Both the position numbers and the translations under genes were made by a program. Below the pieces are notes generated by a model. It had not been told where the DNA came from. It was given only the letters and a program-made list of their open reading frames with translations, and did not search any database. 64,000 bases of DNA, taken from positions 69,312 to 133,311 of the forward strand of contig CAYUNN010000003.1 of the NCBI GenBank assembly GCA_964445905.1. The letters are read 5' to 3'. This document shows, in pieces, positions 1 through 31,800 of this stretch. Positions within the stretch are counted from its first letter, which is position 1, and the number at the start of each line of letters is the position of its first letter. The DNA comes from an uncultured Candidatus Saccharibacteria bacterium (GTDB taxonomy: Bacteria; Patescibacteriota; Minisyncoccia; Minisyncoccales; JAGGXC01).

Positions 1-1004
1 GGCGTTTTTATTTTAAGGTTTTCTATTAAAGGTTTTATCTGTTCTTCTATGTCTGGTTCTTTGACCCAATCTTTTTTCTCACAACCATTGCAATGTCCAT
101 AAATAATTCCTCTTTGTCTTTCCCAAGTTATTAGTCCTTCGCATTTTGCGCACCTTAGTAGTCTTTTAAATAAATAAAAATGTTTTGTATAGCTAGGAGT
201 TGATTTACTTTTTAGTATTTGTTGAACAGAGTTAAATAAATCTTCATTTATTAAAGGCTCTTGTTTACCTTTGTATATTTGGTTATTCCACTTTATCTTT
301 CCAAAATAAAAAGGGTCAGCCAATAATTCAGCCATTCTGCTCCTGCATAATTTATTTCCTTTTCTTGTTCTCAGCCCTTCTTTATACATTTTCTGAACCA
401 GTTTCTTTAAAGAGTATTCTCCGGAAGCATATAGGTTAAACATCTTTTTAATCAAAGAAGCTTTTTCTTTGTCTATTATGTGAATTTTATGGCCTTTTTC
501 TCCTACTGTTTTATAGCCTAGTGGTGGTTGGGTTGGGAGCCAGCCTTGAGCAATTTTCTCTTTTTGGCCCTTTTTAACTTCTTCTGAAAGATTATCAATA
601 TAGTATTGGGCAACTGAAACCTTGATATTCCAGATAAACTTTTCATTAGATTTAGAATCTTTATTTAGAATACAGTTTTCTTTAACAAAATGAACTTCTC
701 TTTCGGAATTTTCATTTATCCAATCATTTATACAAACAGCATCTTTTAGATTTCTGGTTAGCCTATCTATTTTTTCACAAATAATGATTTTAATATTATT
801 TTTCTTAGAATAGGCAACCATTTCGTTAAAAGCATTCCTTTTATAATATCCTTTAGCACTTTCAGAAATTGAAAATTTCTTAGCAATTCTAAAATCTTTC
901 CTATCAGCATAATCTTTTAGAAGTTTTTCTTGAGAGTCTAAAGAATAGCCAGTTTCTTCTTGCTCTCTGCTACTAACTCTACAAAATGATATACAAGGTT
1001 TCAT
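1..1004 (-). CDS. Large serine recombinase (resolvase/invertase family), 3'-truncated by window edge
   Basis: Reverse-strand translation from ATG at 1004: MKPCISFCRVSSREQEETGYSLDSQ...IKIIICEKIDRLTRNLKDAV... The catalytic Ser lies in the RVSSxxQ motif and the conserved DRLxR box is present. Downstream Cys pairs (CAKCEG...CNGCEKK) resemble the zinc-ribbon of large serine recombinases. The ORF runs off position 1. Confidence 0.8.
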   Translation of the reverse strand, partial: MKPCISFCRVSSREQEETGYSLDSQEKLLKDYADRKDFRIAKKFSISESAKGYYKRNAFNEMVAYSKKNNIKIIICEKIDRLTRNLKDAVCINDWINENSEREVHFVKENCILNKDSKSNEKFIWNIKVSVAQYYIDNLSEEVKKGQKEKIAQGWLPTQPPLGYKTVGEKGHKIHIIDKEKASLIKKMFNLYASGEYSLKKLVQKMYKEGLRTRKGNKLCRSRMAELLADPFYFGKIKWNNQIYKGKQEPLINEDLFNSVQQILKSKSTPSYTKHFYLFKRLLRCAKCEGLITWERQRGIIYGHCNGCEKKDWVKEPDIEEQIKPLIENLKIKT

Positions 1005-3666: not shown

Positions 3667-3846
3667 ATGAATTGTAAGTTTTTAACTGTTAAAGAGGTTG
3701 CAAAAAAGCTACGAGTTTCAGAACGTAGTGTGTTTCGCTATATTCATAATAGTAAGTTAAAAGCTAGCAAAGTTGGTTATTGGAGAATTGAAGAGAAAGA
3801 CTTAAAAAAGTTTATTAAAGATAATTTAAATATAAGACAAAGTTAA
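3667..3846 (+). CDS. Excisionase-family helix-turn-helix DNA-binding protein (59 aa; below the ORF-track length cutoff)
   Basis: Translation MNCKFLTVKEVAKKLRVSERSVFRYIHNSKLKASKVGYWRIEEKDLKKFIKDNLNIRQS matches the 'LTxxEvAxxLxvSxxTvyRxi...G.wRi' pattern of excisionase/MerR-like HTH domains. It ends 1 nt before the hsdM start. Confidence 0.6.
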   Translation: MNCKFLTVKEVAKKLRVSERSVFRYIHNSKLKASKVGYWRIEEKDLKKFIKDNLNIRQS

Positions 3847-3847
3847 A

Positions 3848-5287
3848 ATGACCCCAAACGAATCATTATCAAAAGCTGATATAAAAAAAGCCTGTGATAT
3901 TCTTAGGCGAGACGATGGCGTAGGTGCCGGTAACTATGTTGAACAATTATCTTGGCTGCTTTTCTTGCGTGTTTTTGAAAATGTAGAACTTCAGCTTAAA
4001 GAAATAAAAGAGGCAGAGGGCGATAAACATCAAGATATTATTGATAAGGAATATCAATGGTCTTCTTGGGCCAGAAAAGATTGGAAAGATAAAGATGAGT
4101 TAGTTCATTTTGTTTCTAACAAGCTCTTTCCTTATTTAAGAAGTCTTAAGGGAACAAATGAAAAAGAGAAAATAGGAGAAATTTTTAGAGAATTAGACGG
4201 AAACAAAATTCGCTCCCCCTTCACATTGCTAGATGTAATTGAGATTCTGGATAAAGTTGATATGGTTCACTATCAAGACACGCACCTTTTGTCGCAGGTT
4301 TATGAGGAAATATTGCAGGAAATGGGCGCTGAAGGTGGTTGGGCCGGCGAGTTCTATACGCCTCGTCCGATTATCCGTTTAATGGTTAATATTATAGAGC
4401 CAAAATTAGGACAAAGTCTTCTCGACCCATTTGTCGGCTCAGCTGGTTTTTTAGTAGAAAGTTTTCATTATATTCAAGAAAATCTTAATAAAAAATCAAA
4501 AACTGGCCTAAGAGAATGGAAAATTCTACAAAATAAAACTTTTTATGGTCAAGAAAAAAAGCCACTTCCTTATTTGATTGGAACAATGAATATGATTCTT
4601 CATCAGATTTTAGTTCCTAATCTTATAAGAGCAAACACCTTAATGGAAGATGTTCATAATGTTTCGGAAAATAAAAAAGTAGATGTAATTTTGACAAATC
4701 CGCCGTTCGGAGGAAAAGAACATAAAAGCGTACAGAATAATTTCCCAATTCCGGTAGCTGCTACAGAAGGGCTTGCCTTGCAGTATGTAATGAGGCATTT
4801 AAAAAATGGTGGACGTTGCGGCATTGTATTACCAGAAGGACAGATTTTATTTGGTGGAGGAGCATTTCAGAAAATAAGAGAAGAGCTTTTAACAAAATTT
4901 AATGTTCATACAATTATATCATTGCCTCAAGGAGTTTTTGCTTCAATGGGGGCAGGGGTTAAAACAAATTTAGTTTTCTTTGAGAAAACAGGGCCCACAA
5001 AAGAAATTTGGTATGGCGAGATAAGCGGTAAATTTACCAAAAAGATTGTTGTTATAGATTCTAATTTAGAAGATGTTTATAAGAAATGGCAAAAGAGAGA
5101 GATTTCAGAAAATAGCTGGATAGTTCCTATTAAAGAGATTAAAGAACGTAATTTTGATATTTCTCCTAAGAATCCAAATAAATTAGCAGAAGAGGAGCTA
5201 CCAGAACCAAAAGAATTAGTAAAAAGAATAGAAGAATCCCAGAAAGAAGCAAAGCAGATTTTAGATAATATAAAAAAGATTTTGTAA
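3848..5287 (+). CDS. hsdM: Type I restriction-modification system, N6-adenine DNA methyltransferase subunit M
   Basis: Carries the N6-Mtase motif ILTNPPFGG, an AdoMet-binding region and the HsdM N-terminal domain. Translationally coupled to hsdS. Confidence 0.93.
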   Translation: MTPNESLSKADIKKACDILRRDDGVGAGNYVEQLSWLLFLRVFENVELQLKEIKEAEGDKHQDIIDKEYQWSSWARKDWKDKDELVHFVSNKLFPYLRSLKGTNEKEKIGEIFRELDGNKIRSPFTLLDVIEILDKVDMVHYQDTHLLSQVYEEILQEMGAEGGWAGEFYTPRPIIRLMVNIIEPKLGQSLLDPFVGSAGFLVESFHYIQENLNKKSKTGLREWKILQNKTFYGQEKKPLPYLIGTMNMILHQILVPNLIRANTLMEDVHNVSENKKVDVILTNPPFGGKEHKSVQNNFPIPVAATEGLALQYVMRHLKNGGRCGIVLPEGQILFGGGAFQKIREELLTKFNVHTIISLPQGVFASMGAGVKTNLVFFEKTGPTKEIWYGEISGKFTKKIVVIDSNLEDVYKKWQKREISENSWIVPIKEIKERNFDISPKNPNKLAEEELPEPKELVKRIEESQKEAKQILDNIKKIL

Positions 5288-5289
5288 CC

Positions 5290-7128
5290 ATGAAAGAATG
5301 GAAAAATTATAAATTAAATGAACTCGTGGATTATAGAAATGGACTTTGGGTTGGTAAAAATCCTCCTTTCGTAACAGCAAAGGTTATAAGGGTAACGGAG
5401 TTTAACAACGATGGAACACATAACCTTGAAACCGCAAGAGAATTAAAAGTTGAGAGCAAGAAATTAAAAGAACGGGTTATTAAGCCGAATCAGATATTAT
5501 TAGAAAGGTCTGGTGGAGGAGAAAAAAAACCGGTAGGGAGAGTAATTCTCTTCAAGGATAATATTAAAGATAGTACTTATTCATTTAGTAATTTCACTAC
5601 TTTGTTGATTCCAAATGAATCAGTTGTTAATCCAAGATTTCTTTTCTATTATCTTCATTTCTTTTATATATCTGGACAAACTAATCATTATCAGAAAGCG
5701 ATGATTGGTATTAGGAATCTGGAATTTAAAAGGTATTTAGAACAAGATATTCCTATACCGCTCGAAAGCAGTCAGCCAGACCTTGAAGAGCAAAAAAGAA
5801 TAGCTGATAAAATTGATAAATTATTTGTAGAAATTGATAGAGGGATTATAGATACAAAGGTTTTTCTTTTAGATTCTCGCAAAATATTTCAAAGTAAGCT
5901 AAAAAAGATTTTTGATGCTGAGCTTTCTAAAAATTGGAGAATAAAAAAACTCGAAGAATTAGCTGCTAATACTGCCTATCCAATAGGAGATGGCGACCAT
6001 GGTCAAATTAAGCCAAGTTCTTATAGAAACGACGGTATTCCATATGTAAGAGCCGCAGATATAGGTTGGGGGGAGTTCACGCCAAATGGAATGGTTTACA
6101 TTTCTGAAGAAACTCATAAAAATAATTTAAAGAGCGAACTAAACCCTGGCGATATTTTAATTGTAAAAACAGGAGCTACTATTGGTAAATGTTGTATTGT
6201 GCCTAATGATATTAAAAAGGCCAACACAACTGCATCCGTTGGTAAAATAACTGTAAATAAAGATAAAGTTCTCCCCAGGTGGGTTTTGTTAAGATTCTTA
6301 TCCCCATCCTTTTTGAAGTTCATTTGGTCAATTAGTCATAAAGCAGCTCAGCCGAGTTTTAACAATAGAGATATAAAATTATTTGAAATTCCTCTACCAT
6401 TTAAGAATAACAGACCAGATTTGGACGAGCAAAAGAAAATCATTATAAGATTGGATAAAATTCAAGAACAAGCTAAGAAACTTGAAGAAAAATATCAGGA
6501 ACAGTTAAATAATTTCAGCAAGCTGAAGCAATCCATATTGCAGCAGGCTTTTGAGGGCAAGTTGGTGACAGCAAAAGAGCAAGCACCAGAGAAAATAAGC
6601 ATTTTTCCTATTCAGCAAGCTGTTGGAGCAATTCTTCAAAGATTTGAAAGAGGAGAGATGGTTGTAGCTAAAATCTTATATTTGGCCCAGACCATAAATA
6701 AAGTTTCTTTTTCTATACCATTCACGCCACAAAATTTTGGACCATATGATAAAGCAGTAAAACGTGCTGTAACCGCAGGATTGAGCAGAAATAATAATTT
6801 TTTTTCCAAGAAAAAATATAGTAAGGGTTTTGTTTATGGGTTGTCTCAAGGCTCTGAAAAATTGTTTAATTATAGTAATGCAAAAACGTTGAGAGAAATG
6901 AATAAATTTTTAGATGAAATGATGCCTTATTTTAAAAGAGTTAAAAGTGCTGACATTGAAAGGCTTGCAAGCGCTTGTGAAATAATAAAAAACAATAAAA
7001 CCATAAACAATGAAGAAGTTTATAAAGAACTTTCAAAGTGGAAGCCAGAAAAATTTACAGCCCAAGAAGTTGACAGAAGTTTAAATTTTATTAAATCTAA
7101 GGGATGGGATAAAATCTTAATGAAATAA
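5290..7128 (+). CDS. hsdS: Type I RM specificity subunit S with an atypical ~190-aa C-terminal extension (Panacea/SocA-like)
   Basis: Two target-recognition domains are separated by conserved coiled-coil repeats (LEEQKRIADKIDKLFVEIDRG; LDEQKKIIIRLDKIQEQAKKLEE). The protein is 612 aa versus a typical ~400-450 aa. Its tail carries ...VVAKILYLAQTINKVSFSIPFTPQNFGPYDKAV..., resembling the KLqKLLYfAq...GPv signature of DUF4065. Confidence 0.88.
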   Translation: MKEWKNYKLNELVDYRNGLWVGKNPPFVTAKVIRVTEFNNDGTHNLETARELKVESKKLKERVIKPNQILLERSGGGEKKPVGRVILFKDNIKDSTYSFSNFTTLLIPNESVVNPRFLFYYLHFFYISGQTNHYQKAMIGIRNLEFKRYLEQDIPIPLESSQPDLEEQKRIADKIDKLFVEIDRGIIDTKVFLLDSRKIFQSKLKKIFDAELSKNWRIKKLEELAANTAYPIGDGDHGQIKPSSYRNDGIPYVRAADIGWGEFTPNGMVYISEETHKNNLKSELNPGDILIVKTGATIGKCCIVPNDIKKANTTASVGKITVNKDKVLPRWVLLRFLSPSFLKFIWSISHKAAQPSFNNRDIKLFEIPLPFKNNRPDLDEQKKIIIRLDKIQEQAKKLEEKYQEQLNNFSKLKQSILQQAFEGKLVTAKEQAPEKISIFPIQQAVGAILQRFERGEMVVAKILYLAQTINKVSFSIPFTPQNFGPYDKAVKRAVTAGLSRNNNFFSKKKYSKGFVYGLSQGSEKLFNYSNAKTLREMNKFLDEMMPYFKRVKSADIERLASACEIIKNNKTINNEEVYKELSKWKPEKFTAQEVDRSLNFIKSKGWDKILMK

Positions 7129-7129
7129 T

Positions 7130-9583
7130 ATGGCATTATCTGAAGCAGATATAAAAGCAAAATATATTGACCCTAAAATTCACGAGAGTGGATGGGCAGA
7201 GGAACTTTTAACTCGCGAATATCCAATTACGCAAGATAGGTTTTTTGTTGAAGGAGAAGAGTATAAGAAAATAAATAGCAAGAAGTTTGCTGACTATGTT
7301 TTAAAATATGATGATATAAATATTGCCTTAATCGAGGCGAAAGCCGAAGATGAAAGCCCGGGAAAACATTTAAGTCAGGCTCAAGATTATGGAAAAAGGT
7401 TAGATGTCCCTTTTGTTTATATTTCTAATGGCAAAAAAACAATTTTGTATGACAGGAGAAATTTAAAAACCCAAGATGTTGACACATATTTAACTCCAGA
7501 AGAAATGTACCAAAGTTATCTTGAGTGGAAGGGGCTCAATAAGGCAAAGGTAGATGCTTTAAATTATCCACCTTATATTTCACCAACACAAAAGCCAAGA
7601 TTTTATCAAGAAGCTGCTGTTAAGGCTGTTATAGAGAATATTGTTAAGGGCAATAAAAAGACACTATTAACTATGGCGACAGGGACCGGTAAGACTTATG
7701 TTTCTTTTCAAACAGTATGGAAATTAGTTAAATCCAAACACTTTCATAGAGTTCTATTTTTGACAGATAGGATAATTTTAAGAGATGATGCTTATGAAAG
7801 AGACTTTGAGCCATTTGGAGAGGCAAGAGAAAAAATAAAAGGAGGTAAATTTAATAAGAATCGTAATATTTATTTCTCTACCTATCAAACATTATTTGCT
7901 GAAGATTTATATAAGAAAATTCCTAATGAATTTTTTGATTTAGTTATTATTGATGAATGTCATCGTTCTCGTTATGGAGATTGGGGTATAATTTTAGACC
8001 ATTTTAATACTGCTTATAATTTTGGCATGACAGCTACCCCTAAACGTCAAGACAACATTGATGTTTATGAATATTTTGGCGAACCGGTCTATGAATATAG
8101 TATGGGCCAAGCCATAGAAGATGGTTTTCTTGTCCCGTATAAGATTTATAAAATAAAAACAAACCTTTATAAGAAAGGACTTCACACCAGTGATGCAGAA
8201 GAAGTTATTTATGATGATGAAATAGACCCCGATGAGTTGAAGGATTTTTATGAACCATCTGAATATGAAAGAGCTATAAGCATTCCAGACCAAATTGAAA
8301 CTTTATCCAAAAAGGTAGTTGAGATTTTAGATAAAACAAATCCATATGGAAAAACCATTATATTCTGTGTAGATATGGCTCACGCCCAAAGCGTTAAAGA
8401 TGAGCTTAATAGGGCAAAGGGTAACGAAGAATATGCTACCAGAGTAGTTGCAGAAGATAAGGATAATTTAAGACCCTTTAGAGATAAAGAAATGACAATG
8501 CCTGTAATTGCTACTACTGTTGATTTGCTTTCTACTGGGGTAGATATACCAAACCTTGAGAATATTATTTTTATGCGTCCTGTAAGCTCTCAGGTATTGT
8601 TTAAACAGATTATTGGACGTGGTTCTAGATTATGCGAAGGAAAGGGATTTTTTAGAATAATTGACTTTACTAACGCTACTAGACTAATTGACGAATGGGA
8701 TGTACCGAAACCACCGCCTCCTCCACCGGAGCCGCCCGAAGAACCTAAGGCTCCCTTCGATAAACTTCTTTTTGGAGTGTTGGTTGATGCTAAAACAGAA
8801 AAACCAATTCCAAAGGCAAATCTTATAGCTAAAATTAGCAGATGGTTTAAGATAGGAACAACTGATAAAAATGGGATATTTAATCTTTTCGGATTACCCT
8901 CCAACGATACTATTGGCTTCTCTGCAGAGAAAGATGCTTATAAAAAATTCAATAAGAAAGTTAAGCCTCAAGAATCAGAAAGTGATGCTCCTTATGTTTT
9001 TAGTTTAAAGTCAGAAAAAGCTAAAGGCAAAAAAATAAAAATTAAGGGAATTGAGGTAACTATTGAAGAAGAAATAGAGGTTGAGTTTGAGGGCAAAAAG
9101 CTATCTTATGCAGAATACAGAAAATATTCTAAAGAGAATATTAAGAAGAAGATTCACTCAAGTGATGAATTAAGAGAAATTTGGCTGACTCCGGAGAAGA
9201 AAAAGAAGTTTCTTAAAGATTTAGAGAGCAGAAACATTAACATAGAACTTATTAAATCCATAGACAATTTTGGAGATAGTGATAGTTTTGATATTATTGC
9301 TCACCTTGCTTTTAATTCCCCTCTTTTAACCAGAGAAGATAGAGTTAAACAGTTTCTGCGTAATAATAATCAAAACATAACTCAACACGGCCAAGCCATT
9401 CAGGAAGCTATTTATAATATTTTAGATATGTATAAATATACGGGGGAGGAGAATTTATCTTCTCAAATATTTATGCTTCCGAATATGAATGCTCAAAAGA
9501 AAGAGGTCCAAAGTAAATATCCTAATGGATTAGCAGGGTTTATGAATTTCTTAAAACAAAAAATATATAGCGAAGCCAAATAA
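7130..9583 (+). CDS. hsdR: Type I RM restriction subunit R (helicase-nuclease)
   Basis: Has an N-terminal PD-(D/E)xK region (IALIEAKAED), Walker A TMATGTGKT and DEAH-like IIDECHRS. A Pro-rich linker PKPPPPPPEPPEEP is followed by an EcoEI-R C-terminal-like domain. Confidence 0.9.
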   Translation: MALSEADIKAKYIDPKIHESGWAEELLTREYPITQDRFFVEGEEYKKINSKKFADYVLKYDDINIALIEAKAEDESPGKHLSQAQDYGKRLDVPFVYISNGKKTILYDRRNLKTQDVDTYLTPEEMYQSYLEWKGLNKAKVDALNYPPYISPTQKPRFYQEAAVKAVIENIVKGNKKTLLTMATGTGKTYVSFQTVWKLVKSKHFHRVLFLTDRIILRDDAYERDFEPFGEAREKIKGGKFNKNRNIYFSTYQTLFAEDLYKKIPNEFFDLVIIDECHRSRYGDWGIILDHFNTAYNFGMTATPKRQDNIDVYEYFGEPVYEYSMGQAIEDGFLVPYKIYKIKTNLYKKGLHTSDAEEVIYDDEIDPDELKDFYEPSEYERAISIPDQIETLSKKVVEILDKTNPYGKTIIFCVDMAHAQSVKDELNRAKGNEEYATRVVAEDKDNLRPFRDKEMTMPVIATTVDLLSTGVDIPNLENIIFMRPVSSQVLFKQIIGRGSRLCEGKGFFRIIDFTNATRLIDEWDVPKPPPPPPEPPEEPKAPFDKLLFGVLVDAKTEKPIPKANLIAKISRWFKIGTTDKNGIFNLFGLPSNDTIGFSAEKDAYKKFNKKVKPQESESDAPYVFSLKSEKAKGKKIKIKGIEVTIEEEIEVEFEGKKLSYAEYRKYSKENIKKKIHSSDELREIWLTPEKKKKFLKDLESRNINIELIKSIDNFGDSDSFDIIAHLAFNSPLLTREDRVKQFLRNNNQNITQHGQAIQEAIYNILDMYKYTGEENLSSQIFMLPNMNAQKKEVQSKYPNGLAGFMNFLKQKIYSEAK

Positions 9584-9604: not shown

Positions 9605-10531
9605 ATGCCCATATTTCAAATAAAAAATAAGAAACTAGTAAAAATTAAAGAAAAAGTTGCTCCTTTAGAAAAAGATATTCAAAAAGTAACGGAAGAAAAT
9701 TTAGAAGAAATATTCGGATTAAAATATATTTCTTCTGAATTTCCTTTAAATAATTTAAGAATTGATACTCTTTGTTTTAATCCGGAAACAAATTCTTTTG
9801 TAATCATAGAATATAAAAAAGATAGGAGTTTTAGTGTCATAGACCAAGGCTTTGCTTATCTTGCCTTAATGCTTAATAATAAAGCAGATTTTCTTTTAGA
9901 ATATAATGAGAAAACAAAAAAGCAGCTAAATAGAGATAATGTAGATTGGTCTCAATCTAAGATAATTTTTATTTCTCCTTACTTTACTCCTCACCAGAAA
10001 GGCGCTATAAACTTTAAAAACCTACCTCTTGAGTTATGGGAAGTCAATTTTTTTGGCAGTGATTTGATTGAATATGAACATATTGAACCAATTGAAACCT
10101 CTGAAAACATAGAAAAGATTACTGGAGGAGATAAGTTGATAAAAAGAGTGGCTAAAGATATTAAGCCTTACGACTTAGATTCGCATCTTAAAAAAGCATC
10201 TGACAAAACAAGAGATTTATATAGCTCTTTGAAAGAAAAAATATTTGAGTTGGGTGATGTTAAAGAAATTCCAAAACAACTTTATGTTGCCTACCGTATA
10301 GGAGACAGTCGTATAAATTTCTGTTCAATACATTTCTACAAAGAGAAGCTTGAAATTTATATTTTAATAGCCGATAAGAATCTTGATGACCCAAGGAAAA
10401 TGTCAAAAAAGGTTCCAAAGTCATATGGTTGGGCCAAGAATCTAAAAGTGTTCAACATAACATCAGAGAAAGACTTACGCTATGCAATGAATCTTATCGA
10501 GCAATCCTACGAGTTCAATAAAAACCGATAA
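9605..10531 (+). CDS. PD-(D/E)xK nuclease-fold protein (NucS/DUF91-like N-terminus + uncharacterised C-terminal domain), RM-associated
   Basis: D-x(n)-E-x-K pattern in ...LRIDTLCFNPETNSFVIIEYKKDRS...VIDQGFAYLALM. Tightly packed after hsdR with a 21-nt gap. Confidence 0.45.
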   Translation: MPIFQIKNKKLVKIKEKVAPLEKDIQKVTEENLEEIFGLKYISSEFPLNNLRIDTLCFNPETNSFVIIEYKKDRSFSVIDQGFAYLALMLNNKADFLLEYNEKTKKQLNRDNVDWSQSKIIFISPYFTPHQKGAINFKNLPLELWEVNFFGSDLIEYEHIEPIETSENIEKITGGDKLIKRVAKDIKPYDLDSHLKKASDKTRDLYSSLKEKIFELGDVKEIPKQLYVAYRIGDSRINFCSIHFYKEKLEIYILIADKNLDDPRKMSKKVPKSYGWAKNLKVFNITSEKDLRYAMNLIEQSYEFNKNR

Positions 10532-12615: not shown

Positions 12616-13149
12616 ATGAAAAAATATATCGTAATTATTGTAGCTTTGATTCTTGTTGGAGGATTTTCTATTGTTAGTGCATCTCAAGAAGGAAATCCTT
12701 TTCAGAAAATATGGACTGCAATAAATAATCTTCAAGAGCAAATCTATAGTATAGAGCTTACTCCCGGCCCAGAAGGACCGCAGGGACCAGAGGGTCCAGG
12801 GGGTCCAGAGGGTCCGCAGGGACCGGAAGGACCACAGGGAATACAAGGTCTGGAGGGACCTGCAGGTCCTACTATTTTTCCTGAACCAGCATTTGATAGT
12901 GGTTGGGTAGAAATACCACCATATAATTCTGTAACAGATATTCACCACGATGTAGGAGGAGATGTAAATGATTATTTCATTTATGCTACATATCTTAGGC
13001 ACAATGATACCCTTACATCACATAGAACCGCAGCCGATGCAATATGGTGGGAAGATGTAGAACCTAATAATATACAGTTAATAACTAATGGAGATGTAAC
13101 TAATGAATTTAAGGCAGCTAGAATAAGAATTTGGGTTATAGGAGAATAA
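12616..13149 (+). CDS. Secreted collagen-like triple-helix repeat protein with globular C-terminal domain
   Basis: N-terminal signal/TM ([18 protein letters not shown]). Eleven perfect G-x-y triplets ([35 protein letters not shown]) sit at nt ~12769-12875. A C-terminal domain of ~95 aa follows. Confidence 0.75.
12769..12875 (+). repeat. 9-bp-unit collagen-like (GPEGPQ) tandem repeat inside the CDS
   Basis: ggaccgcagggaccagagggtccagggggtccagagggtccgcagggaccggaaggaccacaggga. The copy number stays in frame. Confidence 0.7.
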
Positions 13150-13556: not shown

Positions 13557-14582
13557 ATGAATAGAAAATACAAAATTAAAGAATTTATCAAGGTTAAAAA
13601 ACGGGTTTCTTCTACAGAAGTGGCGCGGCACTTCGGTTTTACTCGTCAGTACGCAAGCCAGCTTTTAAGAGCTATGGTTAATGCTGATACAATTGTTAAA
13701 TTTGGTTCTACCCGCTCTGCCTTCTATACTTTACCGGAATTAATTGACGAAGTTGGACCAACGGCGGTTGAGCGTCGTTTTAAGAATAAAAATGTAAAGG
13801 AGCATGAAATTTTTGATGATTTGATTTCTGCCTTTCCCGCTTTTCGTATTGTTCCCGAAAACATCCAAAGCATAGCACATTACGCATTTTCGGAAATGCT
13901 TAATAATGCTATTGAGCACTCACGCTCTGAAAATATTGAGGTCAAATTAGAAAGTAACGGCATGATTAGATTTGTTGTAGACGACTTTGGTATAGGTATA
14001 TTTAGAAATGTCATGCATCAGCGTAAACTTAAGTCAGAATTAGAAGCAATGCAGGATTTATTAAAAGGCAAGGTCACCACGGATCCAAAAGCGCATACAG
14101 GCGAAGGTATTTTCTTTACTTCGAAAGCAGCTGATCGTTTTGTTTTAGAAAGTTTTGGATACAAGATGATCGTAGATAATACGATTCCCGATGTTTTTTT
14201 TCACGAAGAAGAGCGGGTAAAACGCGGTACGCGTGTTACTTTTGCTATTGCACGAAATAGCAACAGACATCTAAATAAAATTTTTGAAAAATATCAATCA
14301 AAACCCGGCAGTTACGCTTTTGACAAAACCGAAGTACGTATTCGTTTATTTATAATGGGGACTGTCTATGTTTCGCGTTCTCAAGCGCGTCGTGTTTTAG
14401 TTGGTTTGGAAAAGTTTAAGAAAATTATTCTTGATTTCGACCGAGTGCCCAATGTTGGCCAGGCATTTGCTGATGAAATTTTTAGAGTTTTTCAAAGTCG
14501 TTACCCTAATATCTCTATTGAACCGATTAATATGAACAAGACCGTTCGTTTTATGGTCGAAAGAGTCGAAAAGCCGAATTGA
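13557..14582 (+). CDS. HTH + GHKL (HATPase_c, anti-sigma-kinase-like) + STAS-like (DUF4325-like) fusion protein
   Basis: N-terminal HTH (SSTEVARHFGFTRQYASQLLRAM). Then an N-box SEMLNNAIEHS, G1 VVDDFGIGI and G2-like HTGEGIFFTS. A ~90-aa STAS-like C-terminal domain follows. GC is visibly higher than in the neighbours. Confidence 0.55.
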   Translation: MNRKYKIKEFIKVKKRVSSTEVARHFGFTRQYASQLLRAMVNADTIVKFGSTRSAFYTLPELIDEVGPTAVERRFKNKNVKEHEIFDDLISAFPAFRIVPENIQSIAHYAFSEMLNNAIEHSRSENIEVKLESNGMIRFVVDDFGIGIFRNVMHQRKLKSELEAMQDLLKGKVTTDPKAHTGEGIFFTSKAADRFVLESFGYKMIVDNTIPDVFFHEEERVKRGTRVTFAIARNSNRHLNKIFEKYQSKPGSYAFDKTEVRIRLFIMGTVYVSRSQARRVLVGLEKFKKIILDFDRVPNVGQAFADEIFRVFQSRYPNISIEPINMNKTVRFMVERVEKPN

Positions 14583-15528: not shown

Positions 15529-16734
15529 ATGTATAAAAGAAAAAATAATCAAAATAGAAACAAAAACTTCAGGACTGGAAAATTTAGTTCTCACAGAAGA
15601 AATGGTCGTTCGCCACGTAAATTTCAAGGTGAACGAATTGATGCGTCTAAATATATTCAAAAACCGGCACAGAATAATCCCTTGGAAGAATATAAGCCGA
15701 AAAATGTTTTTCGGGATTTTGGATTTTGTCAAAAACTTCAGATCAATCTAGAACAGAGAAAATATTCTGTCCTGACTCCTGTTCAAGACCAGTCTATCGG
15801 GCCGATTTTAAAGGGACGTGATTTAATTGGCTTAGCTAATACGGGAACTGGGAAAACAGCAGCTTTTTTGCTTCCCCTAATTGATAGAGCTTATAAGAAT
15901 AAACAAGAAAGAATATTAATTATTGCTCCAACAAGAGAATTAGCTATTCAGACAGACAAAGAATTCCGTGCTTTTGCTAAAAATATGAATTTGTATTCTG
16001 CTATTTGTGTTGGTGGAAATCCTATTCGTAAGCAAATTTTCGATTTGAGACGCAATCCGAATTTTGTCGTTGGAACACCGGGGAGGTTAAAAGATCTGTC
16101 TAATAAAAAACTTCTTAGGTTTAGTTCTTTCCGAACTATTGTTCTCGATGAAGTGGATCGGATGTTAGACATGGGATTTATTAACGATATTACTGCTATT
16201 TTAAATTCTCTTCCTCGAGAAAGACAAACTTTGTTTTTTTCAGCTACTTTACCTGAGAAGATCAAAGGTTTGGCTAGCCAATTTTTAAAAGAAGCTGTTG
16301 TAGTACAAGTTAAGACAAGAGATACGGCTGCCAATGTATCCCAAGACATCGTCAGAGTTAAAAATAAACTTGAAAAGTTTGATAAGCTTAAAGATTTATT
16401 AAACAAGCCAGAGTTTACCAAGGTGTTAATCTTTACTGAAACTAAAAGGGATGTTGAAAAGCTTTCGGTCAGCCTTTTTAAAGAAGGTTATAAATCGACC
16501 TCAATTCACGGTGATAAAAGACAAAGTCAAAGACAAAAATCATTATCGGCATTTCGGAACGACCAATGTAAAATATTGGTAGCTACCGATGTGGCTGCGC
16601 GCGGTCTTGACATTAATAATATTTCTCATGTTATTAATTACACAGTACCTCGAACTTATAATGACTATATTCATCGGATTGGCCGCACAGGAAGAGCTTT
16701 AAAATTTGGTCAAGCTTTGACTTTTATTGATTAA
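15529..16734 (+). CDS. DEAD-box ATP-dependent RNA helicase
   Basis: Q-motif, Walker A ANTGTGKTAAF, DEVD box, SAT and HRIGRTGR motifs. Arg/Lys-rich N-terminal tail. Confidence 0.9.
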   Translation: MYKRKNNQNRNKNFRTGKFSSHRRNGRSPRKFQGERIDASKYIQKPAQNNPLEEYKPKNVFRDFGFCQKLQINLEQRKYSVLTPVQDQSIGPILKGRDLIGLANTGTGKTAAFLLPLIDRAYKNKQERILIIAPTRELAIQTDKEFRAFAKNMNLYSAICVGGNPIRKQIFDLRRNPNFVVGTPGRLKDLSNKKLLRFSSFRTIVLDEVDRMLDMGFINDITAILNSLPRERQTLFFSATLPEKIKGLASQFLKEAVVVQVKTRDTAANVSQDIVRVKNKLEKFDKLKDLLNKPEFTKVLIFTETKRDVEKLSVSLFKEGYKSTSIHGDKRQSQRQKSLSAFRNDQCKILVATDVAARGLDINNISHVINYTVPRTYNDYIHRIGRTGRALKFGQALTFID

Positions 16735-18529
16735 AAATTCTATGGAGATAAGAAACATTGCCATTATTGCTCACGTTGATCACGGTAAAACAGCCCTTAC
16801 TGACGCTTTAATGCGCCAAACGGGCATGTCCGAAGTTGAAGACAGCATGGACAGCAATACTCTTGAACAGGAAAGGGGAATAACAATTTATTCAAAAAAC
16901 ACCTCTATCTATTATAAAGATACAAAAATAAATATTGTGGATACACCGGGTCATGCTGATTTTGGTTCGGAAGTAGAACGTGTTTTACGTTCAATCGATT
17001 CAGTGCTTTTGGTGGTTGATGCCCAAGAAGGACCGATGCCTCAAACAAAATTTGTTTTAAAAAAATCTCTTGATTTAGGTTTAAAGCCAATCGTGGTGAT
17101 CAATAAAATTGATAAATCGGCCGCGAGAACTGACATTGTCCAAGAAATGGTTTATGAACTTTTTCTTGATCTGAAAGCGAATGACGAACAGCTTGATTTT
17201 ACTACAATTTATGCGATTGCCAGAAATGGCATTGCAAAAAAAGATTTAGACGACGACTCTATTAATTTGAATCCTCTTTTGGAGACGATCTTAAAAGAAG
17301 TTCCGGTTGCTTCGAGAAAGGAAGCAAAGAATAGATCCTTGCGTATCCAGCCTTTTAATCTAGCCTATGATAACTTTTTAGGAAGGTTGGCCATTGGTAG
17401 AATTTATGACGGAGAAATAAAAGACACTTCTACGGTAATTATTAAAAATTCTAAGGGAGAAATTCGAGAAGGAAAAATTTCAAAGTTGTTTACTTTTGAA
17501 GGATTAAAAAGAAAAGAAATATTATCGGCGGCGGCCGGAGACATTGTGATGATTGCTGGCTTGCCGGATATATTTATTGGGGAAACTATTTGTGAAAGTG
17601 AAGATCAGGAGGCTCTTCCGATGATTAATATCGACGAACCGACAATTTCATTAAATATGTCCGTCAACAGTTCTCCTTTTGCCGGTAAAGACGGAAAATA
17701 CGTAACTAGTAGGCAAATAAGAGAAAGACTGGAAAGGGAATTAGAAGTTAACGTTGGCTTAAAAATTGATTTCTCTTTTGATAATTATTATAAAATATAT
17801 GGTAGAGGCGAGATGCACCTTGCAATTTTATTAGAAAATATGCGTCGTGAAAATTATGAAATACAAATTTCTCAGCCTCACGTAATTATCAAAGAAGAAA
17901 ACGGAATAAAGTACGAACCTTTTGAGGAAGTAATTATTACCGTTCCAGAAGAAATGTCTGGCATTATTATTAAAAAGCTTTCTCTTCGGCGTGGGAATAT
18001 GATTGAAATGGTTCCAGAGGGCGGCAGTGCGAGGATTGTGTTTGAAATTCCAACTAGAGGATTGTTAGGATATAAAAATGAATTTGTAATTGACACTCAA
18101 GGAGAAGGAATTATTTGTACCAGAGCTATTGGATTTAAGCCATATGCTGGAAAGATTGAAAGGCATAGTTTAGGATCAATGATTTCTATGGCGACCGGAA
18201 AAACTCTTGGTTTTTCCCTTTTTAATCTTCAGAACAGAGGAGCTTTATATGTAGGTCCCAGCACGGAAGTTTACGAAGGTATGGTTATTGGAAACTCATC
18301 TAAGGGGAACGATTTAGTTGTAAATCCGACCAAAGGAAAGCAGCTAACTAATATGCGGGCGTCAAAATCTGACGAAGCTATTTGTTTAACGCCACCGACA
18401 GAACTAACCCTTGAGATGGGTATGAGTATTGTGAGCGAAGATGAATATTTAGAAATTACACCAAATCATATTCGTTTAAGAAAAAAGTTTCTGACCGAGA
18501 ACGAAAGAAAGAAACAAAGAAAAGATTAG
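16727..18529 (+). CDS. typA: Translational GTPase TypA/BipA
   Basis: G1 [22 protein letters not shown] and EF-G-like domains. 600 aa, typical of BipA. Confidence 0.92.
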   Translation: MIKNSMEIRNIAIIAHVDHGKTALTDALMRQTGMSEVEDSMDSNTLEQERGITIYSKNTSIYYKDTKINIVDTPGHADFGSEVERVLRSIDSVLLVVDAQEGPMPQTKFVLKKSLDLGLKPIVVINKIDKSAARTDIVQEMVYELFLDLKANDEQLDFTTIYAIARNGIAKKDLDDDSINLNPLLETILKEVPVASRKEAKNRSLRIQPFNLAYDNFLGRLAIGRIYDGEIKDTSTVIIKNSKGEIREGKISKLFTFEGLKRKEILSAAAGDIVMIAGLPDIFIGETICESEDQEALPMINIDEPTISLNMSVNSSPFAGKDGKYVTSRQIRERLERELEVNVGLKIDFSFDNYYKIYGRGEMHLAILLENMRRENYEIQISQPHVIIKEENGIKYEPFEEVIITVPEEMSGIIIKKLSLRRGNMIEMVPEGGSARIVFEIPTRGLLGYKNEFVIDTQGEGIICTRAIGFKPYAGKIERHSLGSMISMATGKTLGFSLFNLQNRGALYVGPSTEVYEGMVIGNSSKGNDLVVNPTKGKQLTNMRASKSDEAICLTPPTELTLEMGMSIVSEDEYLEITPNHIRLRKKFLTENERKKQRKD

Positions 18530-22733: not shown

Positions 22734-25382
22734 ATGCAAAATTTAAACAGGAATTGGCATAATTTAGAAATAAAAGAGGTTTTAAAAACTCTTAATGTTG
22801 GTTTTGAAACAGGATTATTGGAAAAAGAAGTAATTAAAAGAAGGAAAGCTTATGGGTCCAATGAATTACCTGAAGAAAAACGCCTGTCTAAACTTCAAAT
22901 ATTTTTAGAGCAATTTAAAAGTCCTTTGATTTATGTTTTAGTTGTTGCTGGTTCCGTAACTCTATTTTTGCATGATTATACCGATACTATTATTATTTAC
23001 GGTGCCGTTTTGCTTAATGTTTTTATCGGATTTTTTCAAGAGAATAAAACATCAAAAACCTTACAAGAATTGAAAAAGGTAGTTAAATATACGGCAGAAG
23101 TTAGAAGAGATGGTAATTTTGAAATAGTAGATTCTTCTGAATTAGTTCCCGGAGATATTATCGTTTTAAATCCAGGGGACAAAGTACCTGCCGATGCGCG
23201 TGTTTTAAAAAGTCACGAACTAAAAATTAATGAAATGGCTTTAACCGGAGAATGGTTGTCATCAACAAAAGAAAAAGGGATTTTAGAAGAAGACACGCCC
23301 TTAGCAGACAGAGAGAATATGGTTTATATGGGAACTATAGCAGAAGAAGGAAAAGCCATGGCAGTAGTTGTTGCTACCGGTATCAATACTGAGATTGGCA
23401 GAATAGCTGGAACATTAAGAGGGGTCAAGGAAGAAAAAACATCGTATCAGAAAAAACTAGCCAGATTTGCTAAAGTGCTTGGAAGTATTATTGTTTTTAT
23501 TTCTTTCTTTATTTTTTTATTCGGCATAATTGGAGAAAGAGAGTTCGTTGAAATGTTTACTATTACGGTAGCTTTGGCGGTAGCAGCAATTCCCGAAGGA
23601 CTCCCGGTTGCCACAACAGTAGTTTTTACTTTCGGAATGAGAGAGATTCTTAAAAAGAAAGGACTGGTTAAAAAATTAGTGGCTGCTGAAACTCTTGGTA
23701 GCACTTCAGTGATTTGTGCAGATAAAACAGGAACATTAACAGAAGGCAAAATGGAGGTGGCAAAAATCTTTTCTCCTTATGAAATTCTTTATTATAAAAA
23801 TTCTCAAGATAAAGCTCATATTTTAGCTCTGAAGATTTCTGCCTTGAATAGCGAAGCATTTATAGAGAATGTTAATAAGCCTATTGAAAAGTGGGTTGCA
23901 AGAGGAAGGCCTACAGACAGAGCGTTGCTAGTTGCTGCCACTCAAGCAGGAATTAATAAGAAAGAAATAGAATCAAAGGAATTAAAAATTGACGAGATTT
24001 TATTTAAATCTAAAAATAAATATTCAGCAACTCTTTATCAATCTCAGGAAAAAGATAAGTTTCTTTATCTAATGGGAGCTCCGGAAATAATCTTAGAAAA
24101 ATCGAAATTTTTCCAATTTAAAGATGAAAAGAAAAAAATTGATTCGGAAAGTCTTAAAAAATTACGGGAAAAATACATCGAGCTAATGTCCCAAGGATTT
24201 AGGGTAATAGCTGTTTCTTATAAAAAGGATAATGAGATAGGAGATAAATTAAGCGAAGAGAATTTAGAGGACGTAGTTTTTGTCGGCCTTATTGCCTTAC
24301 ATGATCCTATTAGAAAAGAAACTCATAATGCTATTAATACTTGTCGTGAGGCTGGAATGAGACCCATTATTATTACTGGCGATCATAAGCTAACAGCTAA
24401 AGCTGTAGCTGAAAAAATAGGATTTAAGGTAGAGGAGAAAAATATTTTAGAAGGGAAAGAACTAGAAAAGCTTTCTGATGAAGAATTTCAAAAGATTTTA
24501 AAAGATATTCATATTTATGCAAGAATCGCCCCGGAACAAAAATTAAGAATTGTTCAGGCGTGGCAAGAGGCTGGTGAAGTAGTGGCTATGACTGGGGATG
24601 GGGTCAATGACGCCCCTGCTCTTAGAAAGGCTAATATTGGTGTAGCCTTGGGTTCAGGCACAGAAGTAGCAAAAGAAGCGTCTGACTTAACGCTTCTTTC
24701 AGACGATTTTGGAGTAATTATTGTTGCGATAGAAGAGGGCAGAAGAATTATTGACAATATTAGAAAAATTATTACTTATTTGCTGGCGGGCGGATTTGGT
24801 GAAATAATGTTAGTTTCTTTAGCCGTTATTTTCCAAATGCCTTTGCCTGTTTTAGCAGGGCAGATTTTATGGAAAAATCTTATCGAAAGTACACCGCCAG
24901 CGATGGCCTTGACCTTTGAAGAAAAAGAAAAAGATATTATGAAAAGAAAGCCAGAACCACTGCATCTTCCCTTATTTACAGGAGAGATGAAAGCTTTAAC
25001 TTTGATTATTGGAGTGGGAACGGGCATTATTCGTTTTGGTTTATTTTTATGGCTTTTAAGGATAGGGATTCCCATAGATCAAATTCGTACTATAATTTTT
25101 GCTAGCCTGGCAATTGATTCATTTTTATTTATTTTTTCTTGTCGTAGTTTAAGAAGGAATATTTGGCATTATAATCCATTTTCCAATATCCATGTCCTCT
25201 TTACCATATTAATAGCTTTCTTTGTTTTGCTAGCAAGTATTTATTTGCCGCCATTACAGCACGTTTTACAAACAGCTCCCCTGGGAATTTTTGGCTGGCT
25301 GGTAGTTTTCGGTTTTGGTTTGCTTGTTTTTGCATCAATTGAACTTGCAAAATACTGGTTTATAGTAAAACATAAGGTTTAG
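22734..25382 (+). CDS. Cation-transporting P-type ATPase (Ca2+/Mg2+-type, P2)
   Basis: Phosphorylation site ICADKTGTLT, hinge MTGDGVNDAPAL and TGE motif. 10 TM. 882 aa. Confidence 0.9.
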   Translation: MQNLNRNWHNLEIKEVLKTLNVGFETGLLEKEVIKRRKAYGSNELPEEKRLSKLQIFLEQFKSPLIYVLVVAGSVTLFLHDYTDTIIIYGAVLLNVFIGFFQENKTSKTLQELKKVVKYTAEVRRDGNFEIVDSSELVPGDIIVLNPGDKVPADARVLKSHELKINEMALTGEWLSSTKEKGILEEDTPLADRENMVYMGTIAEEGKAMAVVVATGINTEIGRIAGTLRGVKEEKTSYQKKLARFAKVLGSIIVFISFFIFLFGIIGEREFVEMFTITVALAVAAIPEGLPVATTVVFTFGMREILKKKGLVKKLVAAETLGSTSVICADKTGTLTEGKMEVAKIFSPYEILYYKNSQDKAHILALKISALNSEAFIENVNKPIEKWVARGRPTDRALLVAATQAGINKKEIESKELKIDEILFKSKNKYSATLYQSQEKDKFLYLMGAPEIILEKSKFFQFKDEKKKIDSESLKKLREKYIELMSQGFRVIAVSYKKDNEIGDKLSEENLEDVVFVGLIALHDPIRKETHNAINTCREAGMRPIIITGDHKLTAKAVAEKIGFKVEEKNILEGKELEKLSDEEFQKILKDIHIYARIAPEQKLRIVQAWQEAGEVVAMTGDGVNDAPALRKANIGVALGSGTEVAKEASDLTLLSDDFGVIIVAIEEGRRIIDNIRKIITYLLAGGFGEIMLVSLAVIFQMPLPVLAGQILWKNLIESTPPAMALTFEEKEKDIMKRKPEPLHLPLFTGEMKALTLIIGVGTGIIRFGLFLWLLRIGIPIDQIRTIIFASLAIDSFLFIFSCRSLRRNIWHYNPFSNIHVLFTILIAFFVLLASIYLPPLQHVLQTAPLGIFGWLVVFGFGLLVFASIELAKYWFIVKHKV

Positions 25383-28867: not shown

Positions 28868-31800
28868 ATGTTAGGACATAAACAATTTATTATTACTGAA
28901 TTCTTAATTAAAAACATGAATAAAATATTAACTTTAATCAAAGAAACTAATTCTTCTAAAAGAGCGTTAGTTTTTGCTTTCGCTGTTTTCTTTGTCAGCG
29001 TTTTTATTTTTAATTTAAACGTTGCTAAAGTAAATGGTTGCGTTCAAGATGATCCTGGCAGTATTACGGTTTGCAAGATTATAATTGACGAAGAGGGAAA
29101 TATAATAACAGATGCTTCTGATTATTCTCCTGCTAGTTTTAATATTCCTTTGTCAGGTGAATCAGCAAGTTTTTCTGATCATATTTTTGAAGCTCAGGAT
29201 TTTTCTCCGAACACTAAATTGATTAATAATTACGACGATGCAGAATGTGTTACTTATGATAATCTTGAGTTAGGAAATTACTATTATGGCGAAGAAATTA
29301 TTAGCCCAGAAGAAAATTGGGAAGAGCCATTGTATAATGATCAATTTTCTCATCAAGTAAATAGCCTCGGTGACTTTTTCGTTTATGACGGAGATCTAAA
29401 TGATGAAAGCAGAAATAAAAACTCTGACGGTCATATTGTATTAAGTCAGGGCAGACCGGAAAGAACACTGGTTATTCTTAATCAATATAAAGTACAGGAA
29501 CCGTCGCTAGTAACTATCCATGCTCTCAAGGTGGTTTGCGAAGGAGAAGAATATTTGCCTGATTGGGCAAGGACTTCCAGTAATCCCTCAATGATTACCG
29601 AAGATCTCGTCAACCAATATGTTGATGATTCGGATGGCAAGTGCTGGTTTGAACCGGGCTGGGAATTTGAATGGGGAGAAACAAGCGCTCCCGAAAAGAA
29701 TGGTGATTACATTGGTTATGGAGGTCAAGGTTGGAATACCTTTGGTCCGACCGATAACGAAGGAAAGGTAATAGTTGAAATTGACTATGTAGAAGGAAGA
29801 CAATATTTCTGGATGAGAGAAGTATTACAGGAAGGATACATTCCTTTTAGCGATTCAGGAGACGGTTCTGAATCTGTAAGCGCTGAAATGCTTTGTCATA
29901 TAGACGCATACAAATACGACAATTATGATCGCGTAGACAATCCAGAAGCGGGCGAGACTTATTATTGTGTTGCCTTTAATGCTCCAATGCCTACTTATTC
30001 TATATCTGGAAAGAAATGGGAAGATCTCAATGGTAACGGAGAAGAGAACTGTGGAGAAAATGGACTAGAAGGATGGGAGATAACCCTAAGTAACGGAGAA
30101 GAGGTCATCGCTACTACTACAACTGACAGCAATGGTTATTATATCTTCGAAGACTTATTGCCTGGTGCCTACGAAGTTTGCGAGGTATTAGTAGATGGCT
30201 GGGAGAATACTTATCCCGGAGAAGGGAATCTTTGTCACAGCGTAGAGATAGAAGAAAGCGATATCACAGACATTAATTTTGGTAATAATCTTATTGAAGA
30301 AGAAGAGTCTTTATTTATTTATGCTAGAAAGGTAGTTTGTGAAGAAGAACAATATTTGCCTAATTGGGGAGCAGATTCTAATAACCCCCCTCAAATTACA
30401 GGAGAAACAGCTGAAGATTATGTTCTTAATTCAAACGGAATGTGTCACTTCGAAGCATGGGATTTCCAATGGGGAATTCCCGAGGGAGCTGTAAAAAAAC
30501 CGGGAGAATTTATTGGTTTTGCTCCTGAACCAGGCTGGAATGTTTTTGGTCCTCATGATGAAGATTTAAGATCAATTGCGGAAATTAGCGGAACTGAATT
30601 AGGAGAAAATACTATAATCTGGGTAAGAGAAGTCTTAAGACCCGATTTTGTTATTTTTACTGATGGTTATACTTCCGAGGATGATTATAGTGCTGAAATG
30701 TATTGTCACATTGACGCATATAAATATGACAATTATGATCGCGTAGACAATCCAGAAATGGGAGATGAATATCACTGTGTCGCCTTTAACGCGCCTACTT
30801 GTACTATTAATTCTAATAATTGGAATCAAGTGGACAGAATAAATCTTGGTGATTCTGAAAGTATGGATGATCATGACGCTCAAGAATGGTGGGACGACCC
30901 GGGAGTAGGAAATTACGGAGGAAGAGATGGAGGAAACCTAATTGCTATCGTAAGAGGAGGAGATGAGTGCTCTGAAGAAACTGCTGCAGCTTCTTTTACT
31001 CTTCAAGCAGGAGCTAGCGCGTCAAGCCTTGTCTTAAGGCACTTGGATGGCTTGAGCAATCTTGATAGCTTTGATGTTTATATCAATGGAATAAAAATTG
31101 GAAGGTATCTAGATTCTCAAGACAGTGAAGAGATTTGGATTACTACTCATTTTTCATTGCCAGAAGGAATGTCCGGTCAATTGGAGGTTGAAATTGTTAA
31201 CATTAATAATCCTTGGGTAAACTGTTCAACATGTGGTCAATTAGCCTTTAATTGGGCTGAAGTTGGTTACTGCGGAGAAACTCCTCCTGCTAAAAGCACC
31301 CTTTATATTATTAAGGATGTTGTTGGAGGAACAGCTGTGTCTGGAGATTTTACAATTTATGTTGTTGGAAACAATCCATCTATAATGTCTTTTCCCGGTG
31401 AAGAATTTCCCGGAACCATAGTAACGCTTGACCATGGGCCTTATAGTGTCTCAGAATCAACTAGCTCAGACTATATTAGCATGCTTTCTGCTGATTGTTC
31501 TGGAACAATAGCGGAAGGAGAAGTTAAAACCTGTACTATAACTAACAGTTTTGACGAGCCTCCTTATTGTGGTGATGGAATATGTAATGGTGATGAGTAT
31601 TGTTATAATTGTCCAGAGGACTGTGGTAGTTGTGGAGGACCAGGTCCTGATCCTGATCCAGACCCTGATCCGGAGCCTGAACCAGAACCCTATTGTGGCG
31701 ATGGAATAGTAAACGGAGATGAAGAATGTGATGGAGAAGAAGGCGTCCCAGAAGGTTATGTCTGTAACGAGCATTGCGTTTTAGAAAGAACGATTTGCGA

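Follow-up and report, generated by a model that had tools for sequence, protein, structure and literature searches.

The C-terminal domain of the antitoxin DarG binds the toxin DarT and occludes the DNA-binding site by mimicking negatively charged single-stranded DNA (PMC11481870). The embedding of DarTG in Type I restriction-modification (R-M) operons has long been noted (PMC5179494), and the RRDM island of enteropathogenic Escherichia coli (EPEC) has the gene order hsdM-hsdS-darT-darG-hsdR, with DarTG2 lying inside the Type I R-M operon (PMC12255303). Here, a different arrangement is described in a 64,000-nt stretch of DNA from an uncultured Candidatus Saccharibacteria bacterium (contig CAYUNN010000003.1), referred to as the window. 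Its hsdS gene, at positions 5290-7128 on the forward strand, encodes a specificity subunit of 612 aa, the C-terminal domain of which is related, by profile comparison and predicted structure, to the DarT-binding domain of DarG. As in the EPEC island, the stretch between the HsdS core and hsdR codes for a DarG-type C-terminal domain, and a small regulator gene lies upstream of hsdM. However, unlike in the EPEC island, the operon contains neither darT nor a macrodomain, and the domain is contained in the HsdS chain itself.

Type I R-M and toxin-antitoxin systems are usually regarded as distinct defence modules that merely happen to be neighbours. In the EcoprrI-PrrC system, a Type I complex masks an anticodon nuclease, a latent toxin encoded in the hsd operon. 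The present protein may be likened to this system conceptually, with the Type I complex in the part of the "antitoxin", or of a platform on which a latent toxin docks, although no toxin gene lies inside the present hsd operon. The SocA/Panacea domain of PanA antitoxins, which has a compact alpha/beta fold (helices alpha1-alpha7, strands beta1-beta2), shares with the present domain a short hallmark motif and fringe hidden Markov model (HMM) matches of some family members, and Panacea and the present domain are alike in being promiscuous accessory domains that occur in many architectures. However, the present domain gives no reportable score with the Panacea profile PF13274, and is flanked by hsdM and hsdR instead of lying in a two-gene toxin-antitoxin module. 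In BrxX, the methyltransferase of BREX, a winged helix follows an HsdS-like helical spacer and was proposed to extend the DNA-binding interface (PMC12839542). The two arrangements are analogous in having a winged helix directly after the coiled-coil spacer of a DNA-specificity module; homology is not implied, and BrxX, a single-chain enzyme, has no DarG-type helical bundle.

No description of an HsdS fused to a DarG- or Panacea-type domain was found in the literature searched, including two Panacea/NetFlax papers and their supplements. The fusion appears to be undescribed, joining a known subunit and a known antitoxin domain in a new architecture: the toxin-binding half of an antitoxin type is here part of the specificity subunit itself, and this is seen repeatedly, in many lineages. 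Binding of a partner or of nucleic acid by the domain, if it occurs, would constitute an unrecognised regulatory or sensing layer on Type I enzymes. Its recognition is also of use for annotation, these HsdS proteins being now labelled only "restriction endonuclease subunit S".

The HsdS protein and its C-terminal domain

The hsdS gene starts with ATG, ends with a stop codon at 7126-7128, and lies in a tightly packed operon consisting of an HTH_17 open reading frame (ORF), hsdM, hsdS and hsdR, all on the forward strand, with 1-2 nt between hsdS and its hsd neighbours and without any extra ORF. The upstream gene hsdM (3848-5287) encodes a Type I N6-adenine DNA methyltransferase of 479 aa (N6_Mtase, E 4.8e-61; HsdM_N, 1.1e-14). 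The hsdR gene (7130-9583), which begins 1 nt past the hsdS stop, encodes a protein of 817 aa matching ResIII (1.5e-40), Helicase_C, HSDR_N and EcoEI_R_C (1.7e-14).

The core of HsdS (aa 1-421; 5290-6552) gives two Pfam Methylase_S matches and a PADLOC Specificity_I match (1.8e-42). The full-length protein was modelled by AlphaFold2 with a predicted local distance difference test (pLDDT) score of 93.4 and a predicted template modelling (pTM) score of 0.74. According to the secondary structure of this model, the core consists of a first target recognition domain (TRD1, aa 1-164; 5290-5781), a central helix (aa 165-209; 5782-5916), a second target recognition domain (TRD2, aa 216-377; 5935-6420) and a distal helix (aa 378-421; 6421-6552). 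HsdS therefore has what defines a Type I specificity subunit, namely two TRDs split by two long conserved helices and an operon shared with hsdM and hsdR. The core is followed by a coil linker of ~16 residues (aa 422-437; 6553-6600; pLDDT ~78-82), within which the peptide ...ILQQAFEGKL ends at aa 425 (nt 6564), and then by a C-terminal domain of 175 aa (aa 438-612; 6601-7125), which includes VVAKILYLAQTINKVSFSIPFTPQNFGPYDKAV at aa 458-490. When modelled alone by AlphaFold2 with 38 homologues, this domain was predicted to form a winged helix followed by a six-helix bundle, with a pLDDT of 96.1 and a pTM of 0.91. The profile matches and models depict HsdS as a complete two-TRD Type I specificity subunit carrying an independently folding 175-aa C-terminal domain. 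An earlier note on this DNA, made from the sequence alone, had described a 612-aa HsdS with an extra C-terminal segment at nt ~6570-7128. Both the ORF and the two peptide strings quoted in that note were found as described, and comparison with the nearest relatives places the segment at aa 426-612 (6565-7125).

The identity of the domain was established by several comparisons. The PADLOC DarG profile matches it with an E-value of 1.6e-10 over profile positions 166-327 of 329, and the NCBIfam profile antitoxin_DarG with 1e-6 over positions 185-324 of 338, the latter with a score of 28 bits, far under the 250-bit cut-off. When a profile of 38 family members was compared with the PDB, the sole significant chain was 7yk3_B, a "DNA ADP-ribosyl glycohydrolase" (E 2.4e-8). 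This chain was seen only with the family profile; phmmer of the single C-terminal sequence against the PDB gave nothing meaningful. A Foldseek search of the PDB with the domain model returned as its top matches 7yk3_B/D, of the M. tuberculosis DarTG complex, with a probability of 1.0 and template modelling scores of 0.66-0.68; the remaining matches were generic winged-helix regulators, all with E>0.07. In hhalign, the family of HsdS-borne domains aligned with 29 DarG C-terminal domains over 150 columns (98.7% probability, E 2.4e-16), and in the reciprocal test an HMM of the HsdS-borne domains detected 68 of 87 DarG-type proteins. The domain shares with the C-terminal domain of M. tuberculosis DarG (PDB 7YK3) the succession of winged helix and helical bundle and the motifs K..LxY..Q, F.GPY, ELLA(T/S) and W..K..F, and its most conserved residues are K461, G484-P485-Y486, E557, L559, C563, W584, K585 and F589. 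By these profile and fold comparisons, the C-terminal domain of HsdS and the C-terminal, DarT-binding domain of DarG are homologous. The two differ in that the N-terminal part is here a complete HsdS instead of a macrodomain, with no Pfam Macro match, the signature of an ADP-ribosyl glycohydrolase, in the 612-aa protein. In addition, no adjacent DarT was found, the net charge is basic and not acidic, and the identity to the DarG domain is only ~14-17%.

The codons of the near-invariant RGEM motif (6649-6660; AGAGGAGAGATG) are Shine-Dalgarno-like and stand directly 5' of an in-frame ATG (M457). An internal translation start at M457 was considered and rejected: the AGGAG-like sequence is only 2 nt from the ATG, and the product would lose the first helix of the winged helix.

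Distribution of the fusion and its gene neighbourhood

The C-terminal domain was searched with phmmer against 1.84 billion cluster representatives (clusters at 50% identity). The search yielded 103 clusters at E<=1e-3, of which 34 reached E<=1e-30, far beyond chance, with identities down to ~24%. In nearly all of the 103 clusters the domain lies at the extreme C-terminus. Methylase_S is present in 73 of the 74 carriers of at least 300 aa, in which the domain is always C-terminal. The fused HsdS proteins occur as two-TRD forms of 550-630 aa and as one-TRD forms of 340-405 aa. Loci with close relatives belong to Patescibacteria (Saccharibacteria, Kaiserbacteria), Omnitrophota and one gammaproteobacterial metagenome-assembled genome, and the only neighbours conserved in all nine loci compared are hsdM, hsdS and hsdR.

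No Pfam family exists for the domain itself, which is contained only implicitly in PADLOC HsdS and HsdM profiles. Standalone relatives such as P0180 match the C-terminal end of the Type I methyltransferase profile MTase_I PDLC03039 (positions 502-699 of 708, E 1e-32), indicating that the same domain is fused to HsdM elsewhere; they also match the C-terminal ends of two other PADLOC HsdS (Specificity_I) families. One locus (L003, 7937-10531) encodes HsdM, one TRD and the DarG-type domain in a single chain of 864 aa, followed by an HsdR of 817 aa, and two others (L019 and L023) encode HsdM-TRD fusions without the domain. Judged from sequence comparison, the fusion is a recurrent C-terminal module of HsdS and, in other families, of HsdM.

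The standalone relative P0180 (251 aa) lies on a Bacteroidota-type mobile element (L010, 5399-6756), where it overlaps an upstream ORF of 201 aa by 4 nt. The C-terminus of this upstream ORF looks, on reading of the sequence, like a sigma-70 region-4 helix-turn-helix. The island also holds relaxase, integrase, RES and PycTM genes, and the P0180 group is a large family without Pfam annotation.

Comparison of 80 metagenome loci encoding HsdM relatives provides nature's own control experiment, namely versions of this operon in which HsdS ends precisely at the junction. The domain is present in only one of these loci (L016). The closest relatives of the operon, L013 and L014, encode an HsdM 83-84% identical and an HsdR 80% identical to those of the window, and their HsdS proteins end in ...FKGKL* and ...LAGKL*, with hsdR beginning 4-7 nt further on. 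In the window, by contrast, ...FEGKL is followed by 187 further codons, with hsdR 1 nt beyond the stop. In a neighbour-joining tree of HsdR, domain-bearing and domain-less loci interleave. Since the relatives stop at GKL and the tree is interleaved, the domain (nt 6565-7125) is regarded as a clean, in-frame dispensable module that does not go with any particular HsdR or HsdM; on this comparison of alleles, it is optional and dispensable in the closest relatives of the operon. The architecture of hsdS is highly plastic on one hsdM/hsdR backbone: specificity is split into two adjacent half-HsdS ORFs of 191 and 200 aa in L014 (1284-2425), and a single half-HsdS of 197 aa is found in L013.

Possible partners of the domain were sought among the neighbouring genes. 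The window ORFs scanned against Pfam and/or PADLOC comprised the island ORFs of at least 77 aa up to 16.7 kb, those at 16727-18529 and 22734-25382, and selected later ORFs scanned concatenated (18.7-34.4, 35.4-35.9, 44.6-45.3 and 48.0-50.0 kb). Neither DarT/DUF4433 (PF14487) nor any other toxin family was found in these ORFs, most ORFs of 36-57 kb being outside the scan, and no DarT was found among the ORFs scanned in the related loci, which were partly scanned. The coupling to a downstream toxin or abortive-infection partner at which the earlier note had hinted is therefore unsupported, as is an orphan toxin gene nearby, for which it had advised looking: no toxin appears in the ORFs scanned, and only hsdM and hsdR are conserved. 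A 209-aa ORF between hsdM and hsdS in L005 was considered as a toxin and discarded, having no Pfam or PADLOC match. Three window ORFs of 283, 219 and 217 aa were likewise discarded as toxins, having no meaningful match (that of the 283-aa ORF, at E 0.093, is noise).

Directly 3' of hsdR lies a gene for a DUF5655/PDC-S18 protein (9605-10531, forward strand; PADLOC PDC-S18, 1.1e-104; DUF5655, 3.9e-13), which among domain-bearing loci is common only to L004. The L004 homologue has a weak NucS-like endonuclease N-terminus, and in L014 DUF5655 is instead fused to GmrSD_N. The genes 3' of the operon vary by locus, and include DUF5655/PDC-S18, HARE-HTH with PD-(D/E)XK, Mrr, a FokI-like nuclease and PDC-M36A. 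At the same place, domain-less relatives carry an equally variable set, comprising reverse transcriptase, GmrSD_N+DUF5655, DUF4268 and OLD-family ATPases. Because the defence cargo is as variable in relatives that lack the domain, this region is considered to be a generic cargo hotspot, and the downstream nuclease genes were rejected as partners of the domain.

Possible roles and origins of the domain

The C-terminal domain in the window has a net charge of +14 and an isoelectric point of 9.8. The domains of 72 fused proteins carry on average +0.046 charge per residue, and in 63 of these proteins the HsdS core is the less basic part, whereas the DarG-type domains sampled, which are mostly from GC-rich Actinobacteria and are relatives of the M. 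tuberculosis DarG C-terminal domain, average -0.03 charge per residue. With net charge as a proxy, the contrast is suggestive only, and hints that the single-stranded-DNA-mimic character of DarG may not be conserved in the fused domains. From the lack of DarT in the ORFs scanned and of a macrodomain, and from a charge opposite to that of the DarG domains sampled, we infer that the domain here is not a DarT antitoxin. The pLDDT of the linker and the lower pTM of the full-length model relative to that of the domain alone fit a flexible tether. Fold, charge and context point, tentatively and with somewhat less than an even chance, to a binding module that is tethered as an accessory to the M2S1 methyltransferase/specificity core. 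With its strongly basic surface, the winged helix would most probably contact nucleic acid, or else a protein ligand of acidic character. The domain may in this way add a sequence-independent contact or a sensing function, and would modulate the complex, basic restriction and modification being possible without it.

Several points weigh against this accessory-module reading. The known relatives, the DarG C-terminal domain and Panacea, bind proteins and not DNA (PMC11481870; PMC10440598). The most conserved residues look largely structural and single out no DNA-binding surface. Net charge is a crude proxy, and AT-rich genomes (33.7% GC in the window) lead to lysine-rich proteins, so that base-composition bias contributes to the charge contrast; it is for this reason that the contrast is treated as suggestive only. 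The proposed mechanism is drawn from fold, charge and context.

Several other readings concern what the domain is and where it came from. The earlier note had proposed that it resembles the Panacea domain (PF13274, SocA_Panacea, formerly DUF4065), which would make it an antitoxin domain of the PanA type fused to the specificity subunit, and had named lack of HMM support for DUF4065 as evidence to the contrary. A folded, antitoxin-type domain is indeed present, and the motif on which the note relied, K..LYL.Q ... F.GPY, is the conserved core of that domain and is visible in the sequence. Weak, sub-threshold PF13274 matches also occur in 10 of the 38 family members (best E 0.0025), one of the 74 fused HsdS proteins matches at 2e-4, the standalone member P0094 aligns to positions 1-103 of the 113 in the Panacea profile (E 0.011), and a protein sharing 63% identity with the M. 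tuberculosis DarG domain bears the NCBI name "Panacea domain-containing protein". These sequence similarities make a distant superfamily link to SocA/Panacea plausible. However, neither the full window protein nor aa 426-612 matches PF13274 even at E<=10 (other Pfam matches at that threshold, DUF6241 and B12-binding_2, are noise), and at E<=1 the profile matches neither the M. tuberculosis DarG C-terminal domain nor P0225, the NCBI-named "Panacea" relative included. Every significant match is to the DarG C-terminal domain, and there is no adjacent toxin gene. The assignment to DUF4065 itself therefore did not hold, and a canonical Panacea domain is very unlikely. The domain might instead be a functionless remnant, left when darT and the macrodomain of darG were deleted from an hsdS-darT-darG-hsdR array and hsdS was joined in frame to the 3' half of darG. 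The gene order does fit a single deletion from the EPEC-type arrangement (PMC12255303), and the domain is dispensable in close relatives. Against this, the fusion is old and widespread, spanning 103 clusters down to ~24% identity with invariant residues, it occurs in several phyla, with the same domain also fused to HsdM, and the domain is modelled with very high confidence. A DarG profile match of only E 1e-10 also indicates that the event was not recent, and a functionless remnant is barely credible. By a related proposal, the HsdS C-terminal module and the toxin-binding domain of DarG would be two states of one locus, hsdS-CTD-hsdR (CTD, C-terminal domain) and hsdS / darT / macro-CTD / hsdR, interconverted by one insertion or deletion at the ...GKL junction. 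The fusion gives a concrete handle on the long-noted and unexplained embedding of DarTG in hsd operons, and a single event at this junction would be an attractive explanation. As a whole, the two-state proposal is nevertheless rated as a long shot. If true, it would account for the frequent embedding of DarTG between hsdS and hsdR, domain-bearing Type I complexes would physically dock a toxin or a phage factor, and restriction would be wired directly to a toxin-antitoxin style response, in a covalent form of the EcoprrI-PrrC guard principle.

Two further readings assign the domain a specific partner. It may be a true toxin-docking antitoxin domain that keeps a toxin encoded in trans, DarT-like or of another kind, attached to the restriction complex; if the complex were disturbed, for instance by a phage anti-restriction protein, the toxin would be set free. 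This would be a hard-wired version of EcoprrI-PrrC and of DarTG embedded between hsdS and hsdR. Homology to the DarT-binding domain of DarG and the occurrence of standalone relatives in overlapping two-gene modules on mobile elements are both consistent with this idea. However, no DarT/DUF4433 or other toxin family was detected in the window ORFs scanned, the fusion has no conserved neighbours in the nine loci apart from hsdM and hsdR, the downstream cargo is equally variable where the domain is missing, and the charge is opposite in sign to that of the sampled DarG-type domains, so that toxin docking is considered unlikely. Alternatively, the domain may be a built-in regulator, with HsdR in the role of the "toxin", that restrains restriction while the island becomes established in an unmethylated host, either through contact with HsdR or by bringing in a protease, as SocA does for SocB. 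ClpXP-dependent restriction alleviation occurs in Type I systems. SocA acts as a ClpXP adaptor (PMC8832971), the domain comes from an antitoxin-type lineage, no partners other than hsdM and hsdR are conserved in cis, and the operon is carried by a mobile island that has a serine recombinase and must establish itself in naive hosts. Nevertheless, an HsdR that is 80% identical works with domain-less HsdS alleles, implying no dedicated HsdR docking site. The HTH_17 gene upstream of hsdM is already a plausible transcriptional controller and offers a route of control, which makes an autoregulatory role of the domain less necessary. A built-in regulator is accordingly judged improbable, and the tethered accessory module is retained as the preferred reading.

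The probable mobile island and other features of the window

The HTH_17 ORF (59 aa; 3667-3846, forward strand) ends 1 nt 5' of the hsdM ATG, and PF12728 was detected on an identical gene in L002. It is a possible controller protein of the hsd operon, comparable to RptR of EPEC. Small ORFs in the same position are also found in L015, L016 and L023, and occur whether or not the locus has the extra domain.

A partial large serine recombinase gene (1-1004, reverse strand) runs off the window start; it was assigned by reading its translation. This gene, together with HTH_36 and DUF5659 genes at 1934-2907, suggests that the hsd region (~1-15.3 kb) is an integrative mobile island, set in chromosomal DNA that otherwise has housekeeping genes. 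Serine recombinase homologues flank the hsd operon in L003, L004, L007 and L009, and the recombinase and the DUF5659 protein recur in some of the nine loci. Beyond ~15.5 kb, the scanned ORFs and the translations correspond to a housekeeping chromosome, with BipA, UbiA, type IV pilus genes and ribosomal proteins.

The island also encodes, on the forward strand, a 341-aa protein with HATPase_c and DUF4325 (STAS-like) domains (13557-14582) and a 177-aa ORF with a collagen-like repeat (12616-13149); the ORFs of 283, 219 and 217 aa mentioned above have no family match. A 1422-aa ORF is located at 28868-33136 on the forward strand. Further downstream, at 39001-42125 on the same strand, there is a row of three type-IV-pilin-like ORFs, all of which end in a nearly identical module rich in cysteine (PPQGCWGTGGECD.LCHY...WYWELASPQSGYFNYVTCEWYEE). 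In the DNA this is seen as three copies of a 300-nt unit and a 172-nt unit, at 86-93% identity.

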